Program-made: the position numbers and the translations under genes
Source of the DNA: a virus
Strand: one strand, 5' to 3'
DNA: 64,000 nt
Virus record (IMG/VR): IMGVR_UViG_3300036766_000317
Location: 27,825-91,824 of that record
The notes under the pieces: model-generated
Told to the model about the DNA's origin: nothing
Seen by the model: the letters and a program-made list of their open reading frames with translations, nothing else
Databases searched by the model: none
Shown here: positions 1-10,292 of the stretch, one piece after another
Layout of the letters: the number at the start of each line of letters is the position of its first letter
How positions within the stretch are numbered: the first letter of the stretch is position 1

Positions 1-30
1 GTTCTTAATTCAAAAGAAAGGAGAAAGAAA

Positions 31-180
31 ATGAAAACCACCCGTACAGTGTATTTTTGTACAATTTGTAATACCCAACTTGATGTTTGTGGTTGGGGAA
101 ATCGTGCAGAATGTCCGGAATGTAACAAGATGGTTAATGTGAAATCAGTGGAAGTTCCGATTCTGAAAAAGGAGAACTGA
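31..180 (+). CDS. small zinc-ribbon protein (49 aa)
   Basis: Manually translated MKTTRTVYFCTICNTQ...ECPECNK; CxxC..CxxC; SD AAGGAG upstream. Confidence 0.7.
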   Translation: MKTTRTVYFCTICNTQLDVCGWGNRAECPECNKMVNVKSVEVPILKKEN

Positions 181-181
181 G

Positions 182-331
182 ATGCCAGTAGAAATCAAAA
201 TGATAGCCGGTGCTTTTCTTACTATCGGCATAACCGGAGCCGTGATCTGCATAGCTTCTCATGAATTTGTAGGAAGTTTGTGGTATATAGCTATTACCAT
301 CATTGCTGTTTGGGTTATCTTTAAAAAGTAA
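182..331 (+). CDS. small membrane protein (49 aa)
   Basis: MPVEIKMIAGAFLTIGITGAVICIA...; two hydrophobic segments; SD AAGGAG. Confidence 0.6.
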   Translation: MPVEIKMIAGAFLTIGITGAVICIASHEFVGSLWYIAITIIAVWVIFKK

Positions 332-344
332 AGGAGGAAAAATT

Positions 345-476
345 ATGGGTAAAGAAAAAGAAGTATGCTCTTGGTGCGGAAAAGAATTGCATGACAACGG
401 GGAAACCACATGGTGTGATTGTGGTTGGTGGGATGCTTTGCCCACAAGAGCCGAAGCCGAAGCCGAAACGAAGTAG
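345..476 (+). CDS. small zinc-ribbon protein (43 aa)
   Basis: MGKEKEVCSWCGKEL...WCDCGW; SD AAGGAGG. Confidence 0.7.
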   Translation: MGKEKEVCSWCGKELHDNGETTWCDCGWWDALPTRAEAEAETK

Positions 477-482
477 ACAATC

Positions 483-716
483 ATGAGGACACTGGAAATA
501 ATTCCAGTGTCCGAAGGGGCTGTCTACATCCCCAATTCAGAAGGGAAGGAAAGAGTTATGCAAATGTCCAATTTAGAATCAATCAAGATTCGTTGCCAAG
601 AACAAGGATTCTTTGCCCGAATACATCGGTTCAAGAAAGGCAAGAAGCGGATGTTTCGTAAGAAAGAACGGATAAATCGGCACATAACCAGGAAAGTTCT
701 TCATATTGAACAGTAG
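483..716 (+). CDS. hypothetical basic protein (start may be 558)
   Basis: ORF track; fits gene packing. Confidence 0.5.
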   Translation: MRTLEIIPVSEGAVYIPNSEGKERVMQMSNLESIKIRCQEQGFFARIHRFKKGKKRMFRKKERINRHITRKVLHIEQ

Positions 717-724
717 TTTGATGG

Positions 725-780
725 TAGCGGATTAGCCATGAGAAATCATGGCTTTTCCGCTGCAATTAAGCAGCGATTAA
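725..780 (+). ncRNA. two-hairpin intergenic motif, family B copy 1
   Basis: UAGCGGA-UU-AGCCAUGA(gaaa)UCAUGGCU-UU-UCCGCUG, overlapping second hairpin CGCUGC/GCAGCG, then AUUAA and SD. Confidence 0.7.
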
Positions 781-804
781 TTCCTTAAAGGAGGAAAGAA
801 GAGT

Positions 805-1434
805 ATGAGTAAAAAATCGAAGAAGGTTGCGGAGAAGAAGGCATTGACTCCGATTAAGAAGTTGACGCCGATTGCAAAGGCGGACGAGTCAATGAAAGCC
901 AAACAGACTGCGGCGATTGCGGAACTCAAGGCAAAATCGAAGGATGCTGCACCCATAGAGGCACCCGTCGTTGCAGCTCCTGTCCGTCCCGAAATGCCTG
1001 CTGACTTCTGTATGGAGAAAGCAGACTGGGACGGCGCTGGTGTGTGCTACGATGCAGGAAGTAATAACTGCGGAACGTGTACGAAGGATTTTCCTGAGAC
1101 CGTTGCCGTGTGCATCGAGCGCATGAAATTCCTCGGTGGTACTGTGAAAACGGCAAAGACGAAGAAAGCTGGAACAGCGAAGGCTCGGGTTGCCAAGAAT
1201 GGTGCGAAACCGCAATGCCTCGTCATTGATGATCTGTTGCGAGCATCAACGGCAATGGCAGACATGATCGCCTCGTTTGCTGCAATCGCATACGCTGGAG
1301 ATGCAAAAGCGGCAGAAGGTCGTATCAATCGGCACCTGAAATCCATTCGTGTCGGCGAGTACGTCAGATCGGCTGTAATGAAGGAATTCATTGCTTATCT
1401 GGCCGTTGCTGCGCCGGCAGCTCCCGCTGCTTAG
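805..1434 (+). CDS. Ala/Lys-rich protein with central Cys cluster, putative DNA binder
   Basis: ORF track; strong SD AAGGAGG; Lys/Ala-rich termini, C..CxxC. Confidence 0.75.
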   Translation: MSKKSKKVAEKKALTPIKKLTPIAKADESMKAKQTAAIAELKAKSKDAAPIEAPVVAAPVRPEMPADFCMEKADWDGAGVCYDAGSNNCGTCTKDFPETVAVCIERMKFLGGTVKTAKTKKAGTAKARVAKNGAKPQCLVIDDLLRASTAMADMIASFAAIAYAGDAKAAEGRINRHLKSIRVGEYVRSAVMKEFIAYLAVAAPAAPAA

Positions 1435-1442
1435 TGAGAAAT

Positions 1443-1506
1443 TGCAGAGGGCACGGGGTGAGAAAGTTTCATCCTGTGTAATGCACACTACCGTCCCAAG
1501 TCGGTG
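1443..1506 (+). ncRNA. twister ribozyme (permuted, P1 closed by loop), copy 1; predicted cut U1479/A1480
   Basis: UGCA-GAGGG-[CACGGGGUGAGA/UUUCAUCCUGUG]-UAA-UGCA..AC..[UACCG-UCCCAAGU-CGGUG]. Confidence 0.88.
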
Positions 1507-1530
1507 AGAAAATCTAAGAAAGGAGAGAGT

Positions 1531-1761
1531 ATGAAAAAGTATTTGGTAGAAGTCCGAAAGAAAGGTGAGAAATTCAGAGAACCTGGTGAACTGATTGAGA
1601 CAGTAAATACCATTCTCAAAGCGGAAGAAGTAGGAAATTTCAACCCGATCTTTTGCATCTACAAAGACAAACGTGTCATGGTAAGTTCTAAAGAAGGAGA
1701 TTTGAGTGATCCTTTTCGTCGGGAAACTTCATATCTGGAAAGTCTTTATATTGAAATCTAA
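1531..1761 (+). CDS. hypothetical protein
   Basis: ATG after AAGGAGAGAGT leader (start reassigned from 1504). Confidence 0.75.
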   Translation: MKKYLVEVRKKGEKFREPGELIETVNTILKAEEVGNFNPIFCIYKDKRVMVSSKEGDLSDPFRRETSYLESLYIEI

Positions 1762-1787
1762 CCACCAACCAAGAAAGGAGTATTGCA

Positions 1788-1955
1788 ATGAACAAACTTC
1801 AGAAATTGGTAGCACAATCGGTAATCGTCGTCCTGTACGGAAACCAGCTTCAAGATGAGAAGTTTGACCAAAGACAGTTACTTCTCGCCAAAGCAATGTA
1901 CGAGAAAGAAGTGGACAGACAGTTGAGAAAAGGGTTGGATCTTCGCAATATGTAG
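1788..1955 (+). CDS. hypothetical protein (55 aa)
   Basis: Manually translated MNKLQKLVAQSVIVVLYG...; SD AAGGAG. Confidence 0.7.
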   Translation: MNKLQKLVAQSVIVVLYGNQLQDEKFDQRQLLLAKAMYEKEVDRQLRKGLDLRNM

Positions 1956-1958
1956 TTT

Positions 1959-2010
1959 CAGCGTGGGAAGCAGAAATCTTCTGCTTCTCGCGGTGTACCT
2001 ACACCAATAA
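1959..2010 (+). ncRNA. family B motif copy 2
   Basis: CAGCGUGGGAAGCAGAA/UUCUGCUUCUCGCGGUG with G.G mismatch; hairpin GGUGU(accu)ACACC; AAUAA. Confidence 0.7.
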
Positions 2011-2029
2011 CTATGAGAAAGGAGAGAGT

Positions 2030-2398
2030 ATGGGAAATTCAATAAGATTGCACAAAGAGTTCGGTGTAAATCCGACAATCCTAAAATGCTTCCTCTGCGG
2101 AGAGGATAAAAATGAAATTGCTCTGTTGGGCGCTTCCTATAAAGGACAAGCCCCTATGCACATGTGCATAGACCAAACACCTTGTGACAAGTGTAAGGAA
2201 TACATGAAACAAGGTGTAATCCTAATCTCCGTGAGAGATGGGGAATCAGGAAGTGATCCTTATCGCACAGGGGGTTGGTGCGTTGTCAAAAGAGAAGCAA
2301 TGACCAACATCATTGATGATCCAAAATTGCTTGAGAAAGGAGCGATGTTTGTTCCTGATCCAGTATGGAAACAATTGGGTCTTCCAAAATTTGTATGA
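2030..2398 (+). CDS. hypothetical Cys-containing protein
   Basis: ORF track, CxxC...CxxC, strong SD. Confidence 0.75.
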   Translation: MGNSIRLHKEFGVNPTILKCFLCGEDKNEIALLGASYKGQAPMHMCIDQTPCDKCKEYMKQGVILISVRDGESGSDPYRTGGWCVVKREAMTNIIDDPKLLEKGAMFVPDPVWKQLGLPKFV

Positions 2399-2405
2399 TT
2401 AACCT

Positions 2406-2462
2406 CAGCTCAGACATGCCAAGAAATTGGTATGTCTGCTGGTGAGATCAATCACCAACTAA
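2406..2462 (+). ncRNA. family B motif copy 3
   Basis: CAGC-U-CAGACAUGCCAA(gaaa)UUGGUAUGUCUG-CU-GGUG; hairpin UGGUGA/UCACCA; ACUAA. Confidence 0.7.
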
Positions 2463-2485
2463 CTAAAGGAGGAAAGGAGAGTATT

Positions 2486-3253
2486 ATGACATCCAGCGTT
2501 CCAAAAGAAGAAATCATCTCGAAAATTATGAAGTTGCTGGCTCTGGGCAGTTCTGAAAAGAACGACAATCCTCATGAGCGGGAAACTGCTTCAAGGATGG
2601 CCGCAAAGCTCATGGCTGAGTGGAGCATCGACTTTGCAGAACTCAGAAGTTCCAAGCCATCAGAGGATGCTTTCGTCACTTATGAGGTGTCAGGTTCGGA
2701 AGACCGAAAAGTGGATTTTGAATCCTCCCTTGCTGGCAGTATTGCAAGGGCTTTCGATTGTAAGATCATCAACACCTGGACAAAATCATTGGATCATCGG
2801 TGGGTTATTGCTTTTGTCGGATCAAAGCATGATCTGGAAATCTCCGTCTATTTCTTCAAACATATTCGGAGAACGATGTATGCAATGTCCATTAAAAATG
2901 TGACCGTCGAAACAGTGAGGCCCAGAAACGGCAGACGAGCTGCCGGTACAGATGTAAATATGGCTCGGAGAAACTACTGCTTCGGTATGGTTGAGACGAT
3001 CAGCACCCGCATGGAAGACCTCTACAAAAAGCGGGAAGAGTTCATCCCGTCAGATTGCCGAGCCCTCGTCATTGTCAAGAAACAGGGATTGGAAAAATAT
3101 TTCAATCAGCAATATCCGAACAGAGTTTCTGGTAGAAGAACTTCTTTACGAGGAGATTTAACAGCATTCGGCAAGGGGCAGGAAGATGGAAAGCGTGTGA
3201 ACCTCAGTCGGCCCATTAGCAGTAATAATCAACAATCGGCCCAAATTGGATAA
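2486..3253 (+). CDS. DUF2786-domain protein
   Basis: N-terminal KIMKLLALG..NPHERETASRMAAKLMAEW typical of DUF2786; start reassigned after SD. Confidence 0.75.
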   Translation: MTSSVPKEEIISKIMKLLALGSSEKNDNPHERETASRMAAKLMAEWSIDFAELRSSKPSEDAFVTYEVSGSEDRKVDFESSLAGSIARAFDCKIINTWTKSLDHRWVIAFVGSKHDLEISVYFFKHIRRTMYAMSIKNVTVETVRPRNGRRAAGTDVNMARRNYCFGMVETISTRMEDLYKKREEFIPSDCRALVIVKKQGLEKYFNQQYPNRVSGRRTSLRGDLTAFGKGQEDGKRVNLSRPISSNNQQSAQIG

Positions 3254-3268
3254 AAGGAGGAAAGGAGC

Positions 3269-3412
3269 ATGAAGTCTTTCAACATTTATTTCAGGGACCT
3301 CAATGAAGATGCTCAAAAGAGGTTATTGGAACGGTTTGAAACAACTCCCGAAGAGGAAAATTGGGATACAGATGTGTTTCCAATAGCAATACTCGATCGG
3401 GAAGAGGAGTAA
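3269..3412 (+). CDS. small acidic protein (47 aa)
   Basis: MKSFNIYFRDLNEDAQKRLL...DREEE; SD AAGGAGGAAAGGAG. Confidence 0.75.
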   Translation: MKSFNIYFRDLNEDAQKRLLERFETTPEEENWDTDVFPIAILDREEE

Positions 3413-3414
3413 TT

Positions 3415-3510
3415 CCAGTTCGGAAATGGGAGCAATTCTGAGAGGTTGAGTGTTAAGCATTCGGTAGGAGTTGTTCCTGTTTCTTCTGGTGGAATTATCC
3501 ACCTTTACTA
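3415..3510 (+). ncRNA. family B motif copy 4 (expanded)
   Basis: 18-bp stem GGAAAUGGGAGCAAUUCU/GGAGUUGUUCCUGUUUCU with internal arm, basal CCAG/CUGG, then GGUGGA/UCCACC hairpin. Confidence 0.6.
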
Positions 3511-3529
3511 TAAGAAAAGGAGAAGAGAG

Positions 3530-3709
3530 ATGAAGAATGTTACTATGGAAACGAAAGGTCAGAATTTGGTTCTGACGGTCGATCTGTCAAAATCCTTTGG
3601 AGCCAGTGCTTCCGGGAAGACGATCATCATCGGAACGACTGAAGGCAATCAGCCCGTTGCCGGACATCCCGGTGTTAGTGTGGGGGTGAACGTCTACAAA
3701 AAGAAGTAG
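3530..3709 (+). CDS. conserved small hypothetical protein (SASGKTIIIGTTEGN type)
   Basis: MKNVTMETKGQNLVLTVDLSKSFGASASGKT...; resembles a widespread ~60 aa prokaryotic family; start reassigned. Confidence 0.8.
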   Translation: MKNVTMETKGQNLVLTVDLSKSFGASASGKTIIIGTTEGNQPVAGHPGVSVGVNVYKKK

Positions 3710-3765
3710 GCAGAGGGCTCCCGCTTCGGCGGGAGTAATGCACAATCTCGGTCCCAAGTCCGAGA
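3710..3765 (+). ncRNA. twister ribozyme copy 2; predicted cut U3736/A3737
   Basis: GCA-GAGGG-[CUCCCGC-UUCG-GCGGGAG]-UAA-UGC-AC-AA-[UCUCGG-UCCCAAGU-CCGAGA]. Confidence 0.9.
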
Positions 3766-3783
3766 AATTAGAAAGGAGAAAGT

Positions 3784-3987
3784 ATGGGATATGCAATGAT
3801 GGTAAGCGAATGTGGAGCATGTCACCAGATATTTTGCTACAATCCCCATCTGGTGCCCAGTCTAAACAATGTTCCTTTTTGTAAACGGTGTGTCGATGCT
3901 TCAGCACCTGAAAGAATCAAAAGGGGATTGGTTCCAATCAAATATTCAGAAGAAGCATACAAACCGATGGACGAATGTGAACTTTAA
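3784..3987 (+). CDS. small zinc-binding protein
   Basis: CGAC...CKRC; strong SD. Confidence 0.7.
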   Translation: MGYAMMVSECGACHQIFCYNPHLVPSLNNVPFCKRCVDASAPERIKRGLVPIKYSEEAYKPMDECEL

Positions 3988-4007
3988 ATTTGAAAGGAGA
4001 AATCTCT

Positions 4008-4133
4008 ATGAAACCGTTATACTGTACGCAAAACAAAGGCAAGTGCGAAACTTGCTCCCTTACCAACTATGGTCGGGATTGTCGGAATGTTCCGATAGCT
4101 ATAAATCGGAAAAAGGCAAAGCCTGAGAAGTAA
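4008..4133 (+). CDS. small Cys-rich protein (41 aa)
   Basis: MKPLYCTQNKGKCETCSLTNYGRDCRN; SD AAGGAG. Confidence 0.7.
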   Translation: MKPLYCTQNKGKCETCSLTNYGRDCRNVPIAINRKKAKPEK

Positions 4134-4138
4134 CTTTG

Positions 4139-4194
4139 GCAGAGGGCTCCGTCAGAACTGACGGAGTAATGCACAATTCCGGTCCCAAGTCCGG
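4139..4194 (+). ncRNA. twister ribozyme copy 3; predicted cut U4167/A4168
   Basis: GCA-GAGGG-[CUCCGUCA-gaac-UGACGGAG]-UAA-UGC-AC-AAUU-[CCGG-UCCCAAGU-CCGG]. Confidence 0.9.
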
Positions 4195-4227
4195 TTTGTA
4201 GCTAAAACAAAAGGAGGAAAGAGAGAT

Positions 4228-5139
4228 ATGAGTGAAACAATGGAAGGGTTGGCCTATGAGCTAACATCCGCAGAGCGGAAAGATGTTCGTGATCGTTATC
4301 CGAAGACCTACTTCCCAAGTCCGGTCTTAGAACCGGTGTGGGCAGGTCGTCGGGAACTCCGCAGAATTCCAGACAAGTTTGCCATTGTCGATCAATGTCG
4401 TCCAGGACCCTTAGACGCATCGAATCAGGTATTCGGGATCTGTTCGGATCAGTACAAAATCGTTCCCTTTGAAGACGTGGTGCATATGGTAGAAAATTCA
4501 GTCGGAAAATTGACTGAATACGGGAAGGTTCAAATCTGCCCGCACACCTATCTTGACGGAGCCAGATTAAACATTGGCATCAAATTTCCTGAGATGAAAC
4601 ATGAAATCAGGAAACTCGATTCCATTATTCCGAAAGTAGAGGTGTTTTCCTCTTATGACCTATCAACAAAGTTGATGGGTCGTTTCGGAGCATTCCAGCT
4701 TAAATGCCTGAATGGGGCGGGTATCTGGAAGTCCTTCAAGAGCTTTGCAAAAAGGCATCTCCAGAATCTGTTTCTGAATGAACTCGGAAACAACATCAGT
4801 GAAGGTATGGCTCTTTTCGGGGAACAGGTTGATTCGTGGAAAAAGTGGACTGAACTGAAGTTAGACCAGAAACTCTACGATACTGTTTGGGATGAACTCC
4901 CTTTCTCTGCTGCGGAACGTATCAAGATCGAAGCATTACCCGAAATCGGTACGAATCTTCAGTTGGGTCAAGCGATCAAAGGAAATTCCCTTGATCTTTG
5001 GAGCCTTTCATCGGTATTGACACAATTCGCTACCCATGGTGTCAAAAGCGAATTGCGCCGTATCGAACTGGAACCGGCAATCGCAAGAGTGATGGACCTC
5101 ACTTTCGACCGAGCCGCTGTTGCGGGACTCGTGCACTAA
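4228..5139 (+). CDS. DUF932/DUF945-like phage protein
   Basis: GICSDQYKIV, SYD, FQLKCLNG motifs typical of DUF932. Confidence 0.7.
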   Translation: MSETMEGLAYELTSAERKDVRDRYPKTYFPSPVLEPVWAGRRELRRIPDKFAIVDQCRPGPLDASNQVFGICSDQYKIVPFEDVVHMVENSVGKLTEYGKVQICPHTYLDGARLNIGIKFPEMKHEIRKLDSIIPKVEVFSSYDLSTKLMGRFGAFQLKCLNGAGIWKSFKSFAKRHLQNLFLNELGNNISEGMALFGEQVDSWKKWTELKLDQKLYDTVWDELPFSAAERIKIEALPEIGTNLQLGQAIKGNSLDLWSLSSVLTQFATHGVKSELRRIELEPAIARVMDLTFDRAAVAGLVH

Positions 5140-5172
5140 GAAACAACGAACTGAGCCAGAAAGGAGGTACTT

Positions 5173-5409
5173 GTGGAGAATGCTTCTATAAAAATGTTAA
5201 CCGTTGATGATTGTAATCTCCGAATGACTGAGCTAACAAAAGAGTTGGAAGAAGCAATTGAGAAATTGGGCCATTGTGAAGCTGTGGATTTGCTTGCGGC
5301 TAAGATTGCTGTTTGGGAAAGAGTCCGGCATCATTTGGTAAGAGGACAAATCATCACAATTGATGGGGAAGAAAAACTGAAGATGTGGGAAAACGTTTTA
5401 TCGGCATAA
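5173..5409 (+). CDS. hypothetical protein
   Basis: GTG start after AAGGAGG. Confidence 0.65.
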   Translation: MENASIKMLTVDDCNLRMTELTKELEEAIEKLGHCEAVDLLAAKIAVWERVRHHLVRGQIITIDGEEKLKMWENVLSA

Positions 5410-5411
5410 CC

Positions 5412-5474
5412 GCAGAGGGCGGACAGTCAGAAATTGGCTGTCCGTAATGCACTATCTGAGTCCCAAGTCTCAGA
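5412..5474 (+). ncRNA. twister ribozyme copy 4; predicted cut U5445/A5446
   Basis: GCA-GAGGG-[CGGACAGUCAG/UUGGCUGUCCG]-UAA-UGC-AC-UA-[UCUGAG-UCCCAAGU-CUCAGA]. Confidence 0.9.
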
Positions 5475-5497
5475 AATTCTATTAAAGGAGGAAAGGG

Positions 5498-5758
5498 ATG
5501 GAACCGATTCAAGACAATTTCTTCAAGAGGTTTCGGAAGAAGGTGGAAGGTATCTTCTACCGAACTCGCGGAAATAAAGGGACTGCCGATCTTGATCCGA
5601 TCATTCGGATCGGTCGTCACCATGGTGGGGGTGCTCGTCTTTCTGCTATTTCTTTTGGCGAAAAGAAAGCGTCTCCCACACTCCGAAAGTACCGACAGCA
5701 CAGAGATCGAGTAAACAAATTGGGAGCGATCTCCCGCAGGAAGAACCGCATTAATTAG
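5498..5758 (+). CDS. small basic protein
   Basis: ORF track; Arg/Lys rich; strong SD. Confidence 0.7.
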   Translation: MEPIQDNFFKRFRKKVEGIFYRTRGNKGTADLDPIIRIGRHHGGGARLSAISFGEKKASPTLRKYRQHRDRVNKLGAISRRKNRIN

Positions 5759-5817
5759 CAGAGGGCAGGGCCTATTGAGGCCCTGTAATGCTACATAGCC
5801 AGTCCCAAGTCTGGTTA
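5757..5817 (+). ncRNA. twister ribozyme copy 5; predicted cut U5786/A5787
   Basis: AGCA-GAGGG-[CAGGGCCU/AGGCCCUG]-UAA-UGCU-AC-A-[UAGCCAG-UCCCAAGU-CUGGUUA]; 4-bp P2 AGCA/UGCU. Confidence 0.92.
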
Positions 5818-5842
5818 AACTAAAGAGAAAGGAGAGAGTATT

Positions 5843-6106
5843 ATGATTACCAAAGAGGATGCTTTGAAGCTGAAATATCGGGATGAACTGCATTTCGGAG
5901 AATGTAGAAAGAAGGTCTCTCCCAGAGGCGGTGTAAAAATTACCAATACCATCGTCCGAGTAAACGGGAAAGTCAAAACGTGGAAACAGAATCTGAGTAG
6001 GTTTGAAGTTCCGATCAAACATGGACTATACGATCATAGTTATGTTGATGAGCGGAATGCTCATGATTTCCATCTCCCGAAAGACTGCCCGTTACTGAAG
6101 GAGTAA
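5843..6106 (+). CDS. hypothetical protein
   Basis: ORF track; RVNGKVKTWK motif; strong SD. Confidence 0.75.
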   Translation: MITKEDALKLKYRDELHFGECRKKVSPRGGVKITNTIVRVNGKVKTWKQNLSRFEVPIKHGLYDHSYVDERNAHDFHLPKDCPLLKE

Positions 6107-6110
6107 ATTT

Positions 6111-6344
6111 ATGCACCTACTTCATGAGACTACAGTCAAGAATACAGATGGAACTTATGAAATCACCGTCTACATCGTCGAAGATGGAAAACGAAGAGGT
6201 CCTTACACTTATCTGATTCCATCGGATAAAGAAGTCAGGGACTTCCTTGCTCTGTATCAAAAAGGAAAAAGAGATGGGTCAAGATTTCATGGGAAAGCCC
6301 TATCCCTTCTTAACAAACACCGAACCAGGTTAATCAGAAAATAG
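6111..6344 (+). CDS. hypothetical protein
   Basis: ORF track; SD AAGGAG. Confidence 0.7.
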   Translation: MHLLHETTVKNTDGTYEITVYIVEDGKRRGPYTYLIPSDKEVRDFLALYQKGKRDGSRFHGKALSLLNKHRTRLIRK

Positions 6345-6357
6345 GAGGAAAGAGAGC

Positions 6358-6639
6358 ATGAAAAAATCGCAGGTGGCATTGGCTAACATGATTCGTATAG
6401 CCAAAGCATACGGTAATACACATACGGTAGAGATGGAACAAGCTGAGAAAGCCCTTGCTGAACTTTTGACTGAAAAAGGTCATTCAGTAAGTGATTGGAA
6501 ATGTGTTCAATGTGATCAGGATCAGTGGGGGAAAGATGTAACCCTCTCGTCTGTCGCAGACGGAGGTGTTCCCATCTGTCCCTATTGCGAGAACGATATG
6601 ATCTTGGTTGAAGAAAGATGGGTGGAGGTGGAGCCATGA
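6358..6639 (+). CDS. zinc-ribbon protein
   Basis: CVQC...CPYC. Confidence 0.7.
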   Translation: MKKSQVALANMIRIAKAYGNTHTVEMEQAEKALAELLTEKGHSVSDWKCVQCDQDQWGKDVTLSSVADGGVPICPYCENDMILVEERWVEVEP

Positions 6640-6962
6640 AGAAGGAATACACCGATGTCAAACTCAAGATGACCCGTCGCAAGCTGATTGCCCTCGACAA
6701 AAAGGATATAGGGAAATGGACACATCAGGAATGTGTTGAGGCAGATCGGCTTATCCAAAACACAGCCATTCGGAATCTGAGGAAGAAATTATCCTTCTTC
6801 CAGGGAGGAACAGGAAGACTTGTTTCCAACTATGCCATACTGATGGCTCAGTTCCACTACGGATCGGCAGAAACAGACGACTTCCTTACAGCAATGGGCT
6901 GTTATGAGGATTGGATGTTCTCCGAGGAGCAGAACAAGAAACGGCATTCCAAAAAGTCTTAA
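6636..6962 (+). CDS. hypothetical protein
   Basis: ATGA overlap with upstream stop. Confidence 0.7.
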   Translation: MKKEYTDVKLKMTRRKLIALDKKDIGKWTHQECVEADRLIQNTAIRNLRKKLSFFQGGTGRLVSNYAILMAQFHYGSAETDDFLTAMGCYEDWMFSEEQNKKRHSKKS

Positions 6963-6965
6963 AGT

Positions 6966-7023
6966 CAGCAGATTGAGCGGGAACCATTTCCCGCTCTTTC
7001 TGGTGTTTTTAAGACACCAATAA
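6966..7023 (+). ncRNA. family B motif copy 5
   Basis: CAGCAGA-UU-GAGCGGGAA(ccau)UUCCCGCUC-UU-UCUGGUG; hairpin UGGUGUUU/AGACACCA; AUAA. Confidence 0.75.
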
Positions 7024-7043
7024 ACCAAAGGAGGAAAGAAAGT

Positions 7044-7526
7044 ATGAAGAAAACTTGTGATATTTGCAAGACCTATTGGAGAGTTCGGAATGAAAAGAAG
7101 ACCGAACATCCGTGCCATCCCTATCAGAACCCGATGGAAAAAGTCTGTCAGGATTTTGAGATGGAATGGACTCAAGAAGCCTGTCTAAGAAAATATCCGA
7201 GAGTGGTGGCCCATCTGATCTGTGCCAGTCTCGGCTATTTTACACCTCAATCAGCAGCAAATGCCATTTCGTTTTACAAACACGGAAAGGCGTTTTTCTG
7301 CGAGTGGTATTCCCATATGACCAAATATTCTCGGGATAACTACAAGGGTGACTATTTTGATGAAGTCATCTGTAAACGGGTTGGGGAAGAAACTCTGAGA
7401 TTGGCATTTGTAGGTCGTCATTCCCATCATGGCTATATGACCGAGATTAAGCAAGCCCGACATCTTGTGGCCGCAGAATTGAAAACTTCGGGAGCTACAT
7501 CGGGAATGCTTGCATCTTGGTTTTAG
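7044..7526 (+). CDS. hypothetical protein
   Basis: ORF track; strong SD. Confidence 0.75.
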   Translation: MKKTCDICKTYWRVRNEKKTEHPCHPYQNPMEKVCQDFEMEWTQEACLRKYPRVVAHLICASLGYFTPQSAANAISFYKHGKAFFCEWYSHMTKYSRDNYKGDYFDEVICKRVGEETLRLAFVGRHSHHGYMTEIKQARHLVAAELKTSGATSGMLASWF

Positions 7527-7534
7527 GCTGAATA

Positions 7535-7590
7535 TAGCGGGTTGGGCAGGAAGCGTCCTGCTCTTCCTGGTGCATTCAGTACCAAATAAA
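7535..7590 (+). ncRNA. family B motif copy 6
   Basis: UAGCGGG-UU-GGGCAGGA(agcg)UCCUGCUC-UU-CCUGGUG; hairpin UGGUGC/GUACCA; AAUAAA. Confidence 0.75.
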
Positions 7591-7607
7591 GAGAGAAAGG
7601 AGAGGGT

Positions 7608-7937
7608 ATGAAAACAGTAGATATTATGGAACGTCTGAAAATTCCAGAATGGAAGGCGAAGGTTGTCAATGTGCTTACCAAAGAACACGCCTCATCCCAT
7701 TCCGATGTTGACGACATCCTCGGAATTATTGAAACCCTTCTTGAAGGGTACGGGGTAGAACCACTCAGGGGAGATCATGTTGATAATTACTATATGGATA
7801 TCAACATCCTCTACATTAATTTGGGGGACACATACACACCCACCGTTCTGTATGATACACTCCTAAACAGATTCTTTATCTGTTCGTGGGGTGATTATAT
7901 TGAATCCAAACCGAAACGATTTCCGATGAATGCTTGA
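7608..7937 (+). CDS. hypothetical phage protein (YINLGDTYTPT motif)
   Basis: ORF track; strong SD. Confidence 0.75.
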   Translation: MKTVDIMERLKIPEWKAKVVNVLTKEHASSHSDVDDILGIIETLLEGYGVEPLRGDHVDNYYMDINILYINLGDTYTPTVLYDTLLNRFFICSWGDYIESKPKRFPMNA

Positions 7938-7940
7938 GAA

Positions 7941-7994
7941 TAGCAGATTGGACGGGAATTTCCCGTCCTTTCTGGTGTGCTTAAACACCAATAA
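7941..7994 (+). ncRNA. family B motif copy 7
   Basis: UAGCAGA-UU-GGACGGGA(auu)UCCCGUCC-UU-UCUGGUG; hairpin UGGUGU/ACACCA; AUAA. Confidence 0.75.
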
Positions 7995-8010
7995 AAAGAA
8001 AGGAGAGGGT

Positions 8011-8355
8011 ATGGACAGAAAAATGTCGAGTGATCTGGATAACTACATTACCGGACATTACGGGGAAGATCAGTTCAAAAGACCTCGGAAAAAAGATAAA
8101 AAGGGGAAGGAATCATTGGTCCATGAATTAGAACACCAGATGAAGAACCTTAACGTCAGTCAGATGTTGGAATTAGTCAAGAGATCGGGAAATACGGAAA
8201 AACGCAGATTCCGATTAAAAGGCCCTACGGGCAGTTTAGATGGAACTATCCATGATGCCGATTTCGGTATCTTGACTATTGACGAAGTACCAGAGTTCTT
8301 TCTGGCAAAAGATTTCTTGTTGGCCAATGACGTAGTTTGGGAACTCATTAACTAA
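8011..8355 (+). CDS. hypothetical protein
   Basis: Start reassigned to ATG after AAGGAGAGGGT. Confidence 0.7.
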   Translation: MDRKMSSDLDNYITGHYGEDQFKRPRKKDKKGKESLVHELEHQMKNLNVSQMLELVKRSGNTEKRRFRLKGPTGSLDGTIHDADFGILTIDEVPEFFLAKDFLLANDVVWELIN

Positions 8356-8374
8356 ACAGAGAAAGGAGATTAGC

Positions 8375-8596
8375 ATGGAAGAGCCAATCAAAATTCCAGA
8401 GAAGGACAAATTTGTCCGAAATTGTCCGGGTCCCAGATATAAAGTAATTTCAGGTCCTGGAGGGCATTACGTCTATGATTACAAGTCTCTGGACGTGGTG
8501 AGGAAAGACGGGAAATTCTTTATGGGCAAAGAACCGTCGGAAGCCAGAGAGTTCCTTCAATCTCTAAATGAAGAAGCTCCCCTTATAGAAAGGTAA
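8375..8596 (+). CDS. hypothetical protein
   Basis: ORF track; SD AAGGAG. Confidence 0.7.
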   Translation: MEEPIKIPEKDKFVRNCPGPRYKVISGPGGHYVYDYKSLDVVRKDGKFFMGKEPSEAREFLQSLNEEAPLIER

Positions 8597-8608
8597 GGAT
8601 GGTAATCT

Positions 8609-8746
8609 ATGAAATGTGACCACTGCAATATCGAATTGAAAAAACGCAAGACCCCTCCAAGAACCGCGACAATTGACGGGGGAAAGTATTATGACTATTT
8701 TCAATGCCCAAAATGCAAAACGAATTATGCCAAAGCCAAAAAGTAG
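8609..8746 (+). CDS. small zinc-ribbon protein (45 aa)
   Basis: MKCDHCNIEL...FQCPKCK; stop abuts twister copy 6. Confidence 0.7.
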   Translation: MKCDHCNIELKKRKTPPRTATIDGGKYYDYFQCPKCKTNYAKAKK

Positions 8747-8799
8747 CAGAGGACGCTGCTTCGGCAGCGTAATGCACAAATCCAGTCCCAAGTCTGGAT
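8746..8799 (+). ncRNA. twister ribozyme copy 6; predicted cut U8770/A8771
   Basis: GCA-GAGGA-[CGCUGC-UUCG-GCAGCG]-UAA-UGC-AC-AA-[AUCCAG-UCCCAAGU-CUGGAU]. Confidence 0.88.
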
Positions 8800-8824
8800 A
8801 AAATAAGAAAAGGAGGAAAGAGCT

Positions 8825-9052
8825 ATGCCAAAAAACGTAAGAAATTTCTGGATCGAAGCAGATGTCGATGGGGGAACTCCCATCGGAGCAGGCCCTAAAT
8901 CCAAAGATGGAGGATTTTCTCTGTCCATCTTCATGCGAGACAAAGGATTCGTCAAGAGGGTCGCCAACATCTCAGGAGTCGGGGGAAGTGAATTGAAATT
9001 ATCAATTCATACGGAAGATGGTAAATATTTACAGTATACTACACAAAGGTAA
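8825..9052 (+). CDS. hypothetical protein
   Basis: ORF track; strong SD. Confidence 0.75.
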   Translation: MPKNVRNFWIEADVDGGTPIGAGPKSKDGGFSLSIFMRDKGFVKRVANISGVGGSELKLSIHTEDGKYLQYTTQR

Positions 9053-9076
9053 CAGATGAAAAAGGAGGAAAGAGCT

Positions 9077-9280
9077 ATGCCAATCGAAACAGATTTCACC
9101 AATTTGCTCAAGCATATCGATGATGCTTCTGATGGATTGGAACAAAAGGTCGAATCGACGGAAGAGGAGTTGGACACTTTGAATACTCTCCTTACGAGAA
9201 AAAAAGAGCTTGTCGATAAAATCAACTCCCTCGCCGAAGAGATTGAGGACTTCCTCAACGACGCCAATTCCCTCATCTGA
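9077..9280 (+). CDS. small acidic coiled-coil protein
   Basis: Start after AAGGAGGAAAGAGCT; about 18 D/E vs 6 K/R in 67 aa. Confidence 0.75.
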   Translation: MPIETDFTNLLKHIDDASDGLEQKVESTEEELDTLNTLLTRKKELVDKINSLAEEIEDFLNDANSLI

Positions 9281-9281
9281 A

Positions 9282-9337
9282 TGCAGAGGACAGCCTCAAC
9301 AGAGGCTGTAATGGACATCTCGGTTCCAAGTCCGAGA
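9282..9337 (+). ncRNA. twister ribozyme copy 7 (variant, G.G mismatch in P2); predicted cut U9309/A9310
   Basis: UGCA-GAGGA-[CAGCCUC/GAGGCUG]-UAA-UGG-AC-A-[UCUCGG-UUCCAAGU-CCGAGA]. Confidence 0.75.
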
Positions 9338-9362
9338 AATAAATTAAAGGAGGGAAGAGAGT

Positions 9363-9596
9363 ATGCACAAAAGACCCACACCAAATCAAGAGAGGTCTTT
9401 CCGTCACTTCTTCGGAAAATCTACCAGTGTTTACTGGAATCCTTTATTTGGATTTGATATCGTTCAATTTGATGCCGACATGCAGTCCGAACAAGGATAC
9501 GTTGAGGATGGAAAAACAAGCCTTCGGGAATTTCTCGTCCAGAAATTCGGTCAAGAGGCTTCGGATCTAGTAAACTCTTTAATAGGAGGTGTTTAA
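9363..9596 (+). CDS. hypothetical protein
   Basis: ORF track; strong SD. Confidence 0.7.
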   Translation: MHKRPTPNQERSFRHFFGKSTSVYWNPLFGFDIVQFDADMQSEQGYVEDGKTSLREFLVQKFGQEASDLVNSLIGGV

Positions 9597-9871
9597 TGGA
9601 AAAGAAAACAGTTGTGATTTTCCGAAAGTTCCCGGAGGGGGATATTATAGCCATGTTCCCCGAAATTCAGGCGGATCAAAATCGTTGTGATTGTCTGAGC
9701 TATCAGCATATCGGCCAGCATGGTCCTGCTTCATATTTTCTGGTAGACCGAACGAAATTAGCTATTGCTGCTGAATATGCAGAGCTGAAAGCGGAGCTTG
9801 AATCAATCGGCTATGATCTGATAATCCGAAAACGGATCAACAAGCATTGGTATGAGGTAAAGGAGGGGTAA
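9596..9871 (+). CDS. hypothetical phage protein (SYQHIGQHG motif)
   Basis: ORF track; coupled start. Confidence 0.7.
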   Translation: MEKKTVVIFRKFPEGDIIAMFPEIQADQNRCDCLSYQHIGQHGPASYFLVDRTKLAIAAEYAELKAELESIGYDLIIRKRINKHWYEVKEG

Positions 9872-9873
9872 AT

Positions 9874-10068
9874 ATGCGTTCATGGAGGTGGTATATACAC
9901 TTTCCACAAGATGCGTATGCTTTAGGACCAATTCATTTTGAAAAGAGGGATTACACAAAGCCTCCTAATGAAAGGGATGTCCGACAGTATGCGAGAGAGT
10001 GGGAGGGTGTGAAACGATTGCCGACGGGGTTTTCTTGTTGGTCTGCTGAGTATTGGTCTGCTGAGTAA
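9874..10068 (+). CDS. hypothetical protein
   Basis: ORF track; SD AAGGAGG. Confidence 0.65.
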   Translation: MRSWRWYIHFPQDAYALGPIHFEKRDYTKPPNERDVRQYAREWEGVKRLPTGFSCWSAEYWSAE

Positions 10069-10078
10069 AGGAGGAAGT

Positions 10079-10246
10079 ATGAAACTGACTGAGTTTGAAT
10101 GGCATCTGAAAAAGATTGCCGAATCAACCTTGAAAATGCCTGATACTATGGTAAAGATCATAGGCGGGATGACAAAAGATGAGGCTAAAGAAATTCTGGG
10201 TAAATTAGGCAAAAAAGAATTGGAAGAGGATGTAGAAAAGATATAA
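10079..10246 (+). CDS. hypothetical protein (55 aa)
   Basis: MKLTEFEWHLKKIAE...GGMTKDEAKEIL; SD AAGGAGG. Confidence 0.7.
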   Translation: MKLTEFEWHLKKIAESTLKMPDTMVKIIGGMTKDEAKEILGKLGKKELEEDVEKI

Positions 10247-10263
10247 TCCACCTAAAATAGTGC

Positions 10264-10292
10264 TTGACATATCAATATGTTTTTGATATACT
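10264..10292 (+). promoter_or_regulatory. sigma70-type promoter at start of replication region
   Basis: TTGACA-17 bp-TATACT with TG extension. Confidence 0.8.

Follow-up and report, generated by a model that had tools for sequence, protein, structure and literature searches.

Intercistronic hairpins that are cut by ribonuclease (RNase) III punctuate the early polycistronic transcript of phage T7, where the sites R0.3-R1.3, including the model substrate R1.1, span roughly two turns of helix, broken by an internal loop or a mismatch. RNase III substrates typically comprise two helical turns, possibly reached by coaxial stacking, and their internal loops or bulges confine cutting to one strand and leave protective 3' hairpins; in T7 the interruption restricts cutting to the 3' strand (PMC1540722). 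Classic Bacillus subtilis RNase III sites are stable stem-loops with small bulges (PMC4838370), and the early mRNA of phage SP82 is a known target of the enzyme according to the part of PMC4838370 that refers to Panganiban & Whiteley 1983. For small self-cleaving ribozymes in bacteria and phages, the literature only suggests processing of polycistronic mRNAs (PMC6765202). The window analyzed here is a 64,000-nt stretch (bases 27825-91824 of the 91.8-kb uncultured phage record IMGVR_UViG_3300036766_000317; 41% G+C) whose first 10 kb carry about 30 small + strand genes in a row with strong Shine-Dalgarno (SD) leaders. Seven Type-P5 twister ribozymes (Rfam RF02684) are present in these 10 kb, at 1443, 3709, 4138, 5411, 5757, 8745 and 9282, and seven other junctions hold a structured RNA element that is the subject of this report. 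The element constitutes a genuine RNA family that Rfam lacks; it is positionally interchangeable with the twister and is best filed as a bistable type of phage intercistronic processing hairpin that was not catalogued before.

An initial annotation of the window had described each copy as a YAGC motif, a long variable stem (hairpin 1) and a short hairpin (hairpin 2) ahead of the SD. The YAGC ahead of hairpin 1 holds, as does the overlap of the hairpin 1 3' strand with hairpin 2, and the alternative pairings are real and more extensive than had been seen; the core, instead of two independent hairpins, is one interrupted hairpin. The element reaches about 6-10 nt further 5' than first described, up to the upstream stop codon, and in every copy this stop-codon flank can pair with the hairpin 2 loop and 5' strand. 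In state I, pairing with the flank extends hairpin 1 into one interrupted helix. In state II, the small hairpin 2 (GGU..ACC) forms from a 5' strand and loop that largely belong to state I as well, so that the two states cannot coexist. The seven window copies are given below, with bit scores from covariance model R2, which was built on 11 copies (model R1 was built on five window copies).

717-780 (+), copy 1: state I at 717-770, beginning 1 nt past the stop codon 714-716; hairpin 2 at 759-774 (GCUGC/GCAGC), then an A/U-rich tail and the SD of gene 805-1434; 57 bits.
1953-2010 (+), copy 2: state I at 1953-2001, with the UAG stop 1953-1955 within the outer stem and without a UU/UU loop; hairpin 2 at 1992-2005, in the leader of gene 2030-2398.
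2396-2462 (+), copy 3, divergent: state I at 2396-2450, with the UGA stop 2396-2398 in the stem; hairpin 2 at 2441-2456, in the leader of the DUF2786/DUF7168 gene 2486-3253; 25.6 bits.
3409-3510 (+), copy 4, divergent: state I at 3409-3498, with the UAA stop 3410-3412 in the stem; hairpin 2 at 3488-3503, shared unchanged by two copies in the relatives, in the leader of gene 3530-3709; 20 bits.
6957-7023 (+), copy 5: state I at 6957-7014 (23 bp), with the UAA stop 6960-6962 in the stem; hairpin 2 at 7002-7018, in the leader of gene 7044-7526.
7528-7589 (+), copy 6: state I at 7528-7579, beginning 2 nt past the stop codon 7524-7526; hairpin 2 at 7569-7583, in the leader of gene 7608-7937.
7934-7994 (+), copy 7: state I at 7934-7984, with the UGA stop 7935-7937 in the stem; hairpin 2 at 7974-7989, in the leader of gene 8011-8355.

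The inner stem of copy 4 (3421-3481) is enlarged to 36 bp and contains an additional internal hairpin, so that hairpin 1 looks as though it had received another hairpin by insertion.

All seven copies that had been annotated are present in the sequence and were recovered by the covariance models. They lie on the + strand only and are the sole matches of R1 and R2 in the 91.8-kb genome (20-68 bits), the minus strand giving only weaker echoes of the element hairpins. The pattern CTGGTG..CACCAA occurs three times against 0.03 expected by chance, and each window copy folds far more stably than its shuffled versions, with z scores of -4.3 to -6.3. Rfam comparisons were made at the gathering threshold and at E≤10, and none of the seven elements matches any family even at the latter, in agreement with their original placement outside the known ribozyme families. 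The models for hammerhead, hatchet, twister-sister, hepatitis delta virus-like and hairpin ribozymes gave no match at E≤10, a search that permuted forms would escape, and the Pistol model (RF02679) likewise matched none of the elements at E≤10. A cmscan search at E≤10 over window positions 600-8200 returned only the five true twisters, with no twister-model match to the elements. Two further observations of the initial annotation were borne out: window junctions hold either a Type-P5 twister or an element and none holds both, and no real U-tract was found at any of the seven elements, nor was a promoter-like site.

Nine further copies were found on two metagenome contigs of related phage, L243 and L244, which were reached through homologues of the protein encoded at 7044-7526 and which each carry at least one twister. 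Fold statistics refer to 17 copies, and hairpin 2 statistics to the 15 copies that carry this hairpin. State I has a length of 19-23 bp in all but one of the 17 copies. In 13 of these 17 it is the fold of minimum free energy, and on average it is more stable than state II by about 3 kcal/mol. It starts no more than 3 nt from the stop codon in all seven window copies, with the stop inside the stem in five. The duplex between flank and hairpin 2 averages -9.1 kcal/mol for cognate pairs (15 copies) vs -5.2 kcal/mol for non-cognate pairs, and 0 of 100,000 permutations were as good, a statistic that is inflated by the non-independence of the L243/L244 orthologues and of copies that share a genome; for the seven window copies alone, p = 0.013. 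As first noted, AGC lies opposite GGU in state I, giving A-U, G.G and C-G, and 15 G.G 1x1 mismatches were counted family-wide. The G.G mismatch, bulges or UU/UU loops sit about 12-15 steps below the apical loop. The UU/UU loop that had been reported in four copies (at 725, 6966, 7535 and 7941) is indeed there; it is not a general feature of the family, since eight of the nine relatives' copies have uninterrupted inner stems and only L244:307 keeps it. Two L243 copies (826-893 and 1152-1223) retain the long helix and have no hairpin 2, which identifies the long helix as the core of the element. Where hairpin 2 is present, it is followed by 10-14 A-rich nt and then the SD, and this leader is essentially unstructured. 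Masking of the SD by the hairpin 2 3' strand was not found, the fold energy lying between 0 and -3 kcal/mol for 14 of the 15 leaders, and an anti-SD role for this strand was ruled out, as it has no useful pairing with the SD.

Both alternative pairings covary, and both folds are maintained. Across 11 copies of hairpin 1, both partners have changed at 10 of 12 pairs and pairing is retained in 97.7% of cells; none of 500 shuffles scored as high. Covariation in hairpin 2 and the flank was tallied by hand and script because a MAFFT alignment of all copies misaligned their 5' halves. Among the 15 copies, hairpin 2 pair 4 is G-C in 11, A-U in three and G.U in one; pair 5 is G-C in seven, C-G in four, U-A in three and A-U in one; and pair 2 is C-G in the copy at 725 and G-C in all others, in keeping with the covarying stem (GCUGC/GCAGC) that the initial annotation had pointed out in that copy. 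The orthologues L243:4309 and L244:1805 display three-way covariation, in which a G-to-A change in the shared strand is met by C-to-U changes in the two alternative partners of that strand. Four close comparisons between orthologues or paralogues, L243 vs L244 among them, show substitutions that keep pairing and no broken state I pair. Moreover, G.U pairs account for 42 of 377 pairs, as against 3 A.C mismatches, and this excess implies that selection acts on the + strand RNA.

The slot shared with Type-P5 twisters (RF02684) runs from the stop codon to the SD leader, and both RNAs present a large hairpin, a small hairpin, an A-rich spacer and the SD in that order. The element differs in lacking the UAAUGC cleavage-site strand, the CCCAAG loop and the GGG:CCC pseudoknot of the twister. 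In the early region of G001, a syntenic relative of 90.6 kb that is 65-72% identical at the nucleotide level, there are 20 twisters and no copy of the element. A swap between twister and element at orthologous leaders, which had been proposed as a check, was found at four leaders; that these carry a twister in some genomes and the element in others supports the interchangeability of the two.

Leader of the DUF932 gene (window 4228): element in L243; twister in the window, G001 and L199.
Leader of the DUF2786 gene (2486): element in the window, L243 and L244; twister in L199.
Leader of the 59-amino-acid gene (3530): element in the window, L243 and L244; twister in G001.
Leader of the gene at 805: element in the window; twister in G001.

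Wider searches recovered no convincing copies in 109 twister-bearing IMG/VR loci (R1 and/or R2) or in five whole twister-rich phage records (R1), the marginal analogues in the IMG/VR search being L161 at 20 bits and L131 and L199 at 16-18 bits. A loose DNA pattern gave more than 119 single chance matches in IMG/VR and was uninformative. Searches for relatives with the DUF932 protein or the DNA polymerase found none, and an alignment search with DUF2786 found distant phages only. The more distant phage L295, with no twisters in the 16.7-kb locus retrieved, has at least 10 junctions of the same design in other sequence, each with a stop-anchored interrupted hairpin of 20-29 bp and an alternative small hairpin. 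Between L295 positions 245 and 8770, several long stop-anchored hairpins precede a common leader of similar sequence that ends in GUGAAAGGAGA, and the small alternative hairpin there is GGAGC..GCUCC, with SD-like and anti-SD-like strands.

Other junctions of the relatives vary in their own ways. On L243, positions 2334-2479 form a twister-like element below the Rfam gathering threshold, with UGUG/CACA in place of the usual GCA/UGC stem and a large insertion in the main hairpin. One of the few early G001 junctions without a twister (L238, about 6095-6187) contains two hairpins flanked by GAAAC and CUGAAGA strings; these stand in open-stem-II hammerhead order, with a stem II that would span only about 3 bp and no Rfam call. 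The G001 junction upstream of the DUF2786 gene has a plain hairpin and no twister. Over window positions 1-10000, early orthologues are reordered relative to G001 and their leaders are alike (twister or hairpin, A-rich spacer, SD), which suggests cassette shuffling through repeated junction sequences.

The element is perhaps a host RNase III-type intercistronic mRNA-processing site. This reading is favored here, tentatively, because the anatomy of the element matches that of established bacterial RNase III substrates. The 19-23 bp of state I correspond to the helix of about two turns (about 20-22 bp) expected of such a substrate, and the G.G mismatches, together with bulges or UU/UU loops, correspond to its interruptions. 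According to this model, the stop-codon sequence in the early polycistronic transcript would pair with the region just 3' of hairpin 1 and extend it to about two turns, interrupted by the conserved G.G mismatch and small bulges. Host RNase III would then cut near the mismatch, where hairpin 1 meets hairpin 2, and chiefly in the 3' strand, so that the upstream mRNA would retain a 3'-terminal hairpin. The freed downstream strand would refold into hairpin 2, capping the new 5' end 10-14 nt ahead of the unstructured SD leader. The element would thus do by means of a protein nuclease the same job as the twisters at neighboring junctions. Support comes from the slot equivalence, the swaps, the extended helix, the pairing-keeping substitutions, the RNA-level signal, the L295 architecture and the two L243 copies that have the long helix alone, and an RNase III-type site would account for the fixed helix length, the running of the stem into the stop codon, the retention of both folds and the presence of the element in place of a ribozyme that cleaves. 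The initial annotation had offered a new self-cleaver, an RNase III site, a phage nuclease site and an antitermination element; of these, the RNase III-type site fits the anatomy best (two turns, conserved mismatches, intercistronic position in an early operon), and neither the self-cleaver nor antitermination is favored.

Compared with the T7 sites, the element has no sequence similarity, its helix is anchored on the stop codon, and it has a conserved G.G mismatch, not an asymmetric loop, plus a second, mutually exclusive small hairpin; cleavage is known in T7, whereas the element is described from its sequence and predicted fold. The SP82 sites for B. subtilis RNase III, compared here by description only, are similar in being repeated stem-loops in phage early mRNA. 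In the 1983 account of Panganiban and Whiteley, they are said to share sequence with one another. The SD-rich leaders of the window suggest a Gram-positive-type host, which is not established. Several points weigh against an RNase III-type site. No RNase III gene is encoded by the phage, so that a host enzyme must be assumed, and processing itself is a prediction from sequence and folding. Any stable hairpin could act as an exonuclease barrier uncut; neither the conserved AGC, GGU and ACC triplets nor the G.G mismatch is known as a determinant of RNase III cutting; and the covariation of hairpin 2 is explained only through the proposed refolding after the cut. The non-independence of copies and orthologues counts here as well, and the family was found in two lineages only, so part of its conservation may reflect recent common descent.

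The main rival, itself rather unlikely, is that the module works uncut, with the long hairpin blocking 3'-to-5' exonucleases and insulating the next ribosome-binding site and the two folds forming a translation-gated switch; in this scheme a terminating ribosome would melt the outer stem at the stop codon and the freed strand would park in hairpin 2. Such a switch would suit a stop codon that lies inside the outer stem or no more than 2 nt away in all seven window copies, states that differ by only about 3 kcal/mol on average, an unstructured leader at a fixed 10-14 nt spacing between hairpin 2 and the SD, and three-way covariation that maintains both pairings. It has, however, no obvious output, the hairpin 2 3' strand failing to sequester the SD in 14 of 15 leaders, and it leaves unexplained the 19-23 bp length, the conserved G.G mismatch and why orthologous leaders have the element instead of a ribozyme that cleaves. 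Occupation of the twister slot and the swaps at orthologous leaders would also be expected of a new self-cleaving ribozyme class, or of a radically diverged twister, cutting near the hairpin 1/hairpin 2 boundary, and YAGC, GGU, ACC and the G.G mismatch are conserved. The search of Weinberg et al. in 2015 near known ribozymes reportedly yielded pistol, hatchet and twister-sister. There is a loose, partial likeness to pistol (RF02679) in a strand complementary to a hairpin loop, followed by AGC beside a long variable hairpin, then a small hairpin with an A-rich stretch past it. Pistol ribozymes are common near phage genes in Firmicutes and combine a pseudoknot between the P1 loop and a junction with P1, a P2 helix with the G-U site and conserved purine 32, G40 and G42 (PMC6154101). 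In the element the order of parts is permuted, no counterpart of P2 or of the purine-32 region is present, and the loop pairing excludes the small hairpin rather than stacking on it. A simultaneous pseudoknot or permuted pistol was ruled out, since the flank-loop pairing and the hairpin 2 stem draw on common nucleotides and the helices cannot coexist in a single compact fold, and P2 is lacking. With no Rfam ribozyme match at E≤10, very few conserved nucleotides unpaired, the UU/UU loop dispensable and hairpin 2 absent altogether in two copies, a ribozyme is improbable. That a new, very small self-cleaving RNA class replaced twisters junction by junction, its folds gating self-scission to the passage of a terminating ribosome, appears distinctly improbable.

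A site for another endonuclease is improbable too, whether host RNase Y, E or J acting beside the hairpin, RNase P on a minihelix with ACCA, a Mini-III-type enzyme on the GGU/ACC duplex or a phage nuclease. The conserved GGU/ACC and AGC triplets suggest sequence-specific reading, the idea of a GGU/ACC duplex drawing on the preference of Mini-III, and the early region is rich in proteins of unknown function. No nuclease domain was found, however, among the early proteins tested, and the Cys/His-rich protein encoded at 7044-7526, which accompanies the element in the window, L243 and L244 (the latter loci having been retrieved through it), has no informative fold match. ACCA directly follows the long stem in several copies, yet its distance from the stem is not fixed across copies, and the RNase P minihelix was ruled out because ACCA follows the stem in some copies only. 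As a DNA-level repeat, the element could be a linker for recombinational shuffling of early gene cassettes, a function reportedly proposed by Arbiol et al. in 2010 for the PeSL repeats of T4-type phages. The shuffled early gene order between the window genome and G001, with leaders alike, would agree with this; the preponderance of G.U pairs over A.C mismatches does not, and the covariation of stems whose sequences diverge argues for selection on the + strand RNA fold over a repeated DNA sequence. A linker is accordingly very improbable, and cassette shuffling could be a side effect of the element. A transcription element, be it an intrinsic terminator or attenuator or a put- or nut-like antitermination RNA, is the least credible of these explanations. 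The hairpins are stable, and two adjacent hairpins faintly recall put RNAs. A terminator scan flags, in two copies only, an upper stem followed by the TTTCTGGT strand, but the T's that trigger the flag are part of the lower stem. A U-run is missing from most copies, no element has a GC-rich hairpin directly followed by a U-tract, and terminator-like sites total 15 vs 10.0 ± 2.8 (standard deviation) in shuffles. Moreover, seven to ten copies per operon are unlike what antitermination needs, and the next SD follows at once.

The element is valuable chiefly as a natural counterpart of the twister. Should RNase III cut the hairpin, the natural swap would argue that twisters cut the early message into gene-sized pieces with protected ends, and ribozyme-based and protein-based cutting would then be interchangeable solutions. 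The bistable design, in which one shared strand has two covarying partners, one of them over a stop codon, is an unusually clean natural RNA switch and could serve as an insulator part in synthetic operons.

Gene 7044-7526 is flanked by two elements and encodes a 160-amino-acid, Cys/His-rich protein with invariant C5, C8, H22, C24, C35, C47, H57, C60, C86 and H128. Besides those in L243 and L244, it has further homologues at 71-79% identity; none was found in G001, and the protein matches no Pfam or PHROG family. It was considered as a candidate partner of the element and set aside, its AlphaFold model (predicted local distance difference test score, pLDDT, of 70) having no fold match at E≤0.001. 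One neighboring junction carries a related element that is not a family member by sequence:

473-527 (+): related junction element between gene 345-476 and gene 558-716.

This hairpin starts from the UAG stop of gene 345-476 and consists of 7 bp, a 7x8 internal loop and 11 bp (z score of -5.2 vs shuffles), with no match to an Rfam family. Its loop strands, AUCAUGA and GAAGGGGC, bear a faint likeness to a hammerhead core; a third stem is missing. Within the first 11 kb, the strongest promoter-like site lies at 10264-10292 (TTGACA, a 17-nt spacer, TATACT and an upstream TG), with a second such site just ahead of it, and together these sites (10220-10292) probably mark the start of the next transcription unit past the block punctuated by ribozymes and hairpins.

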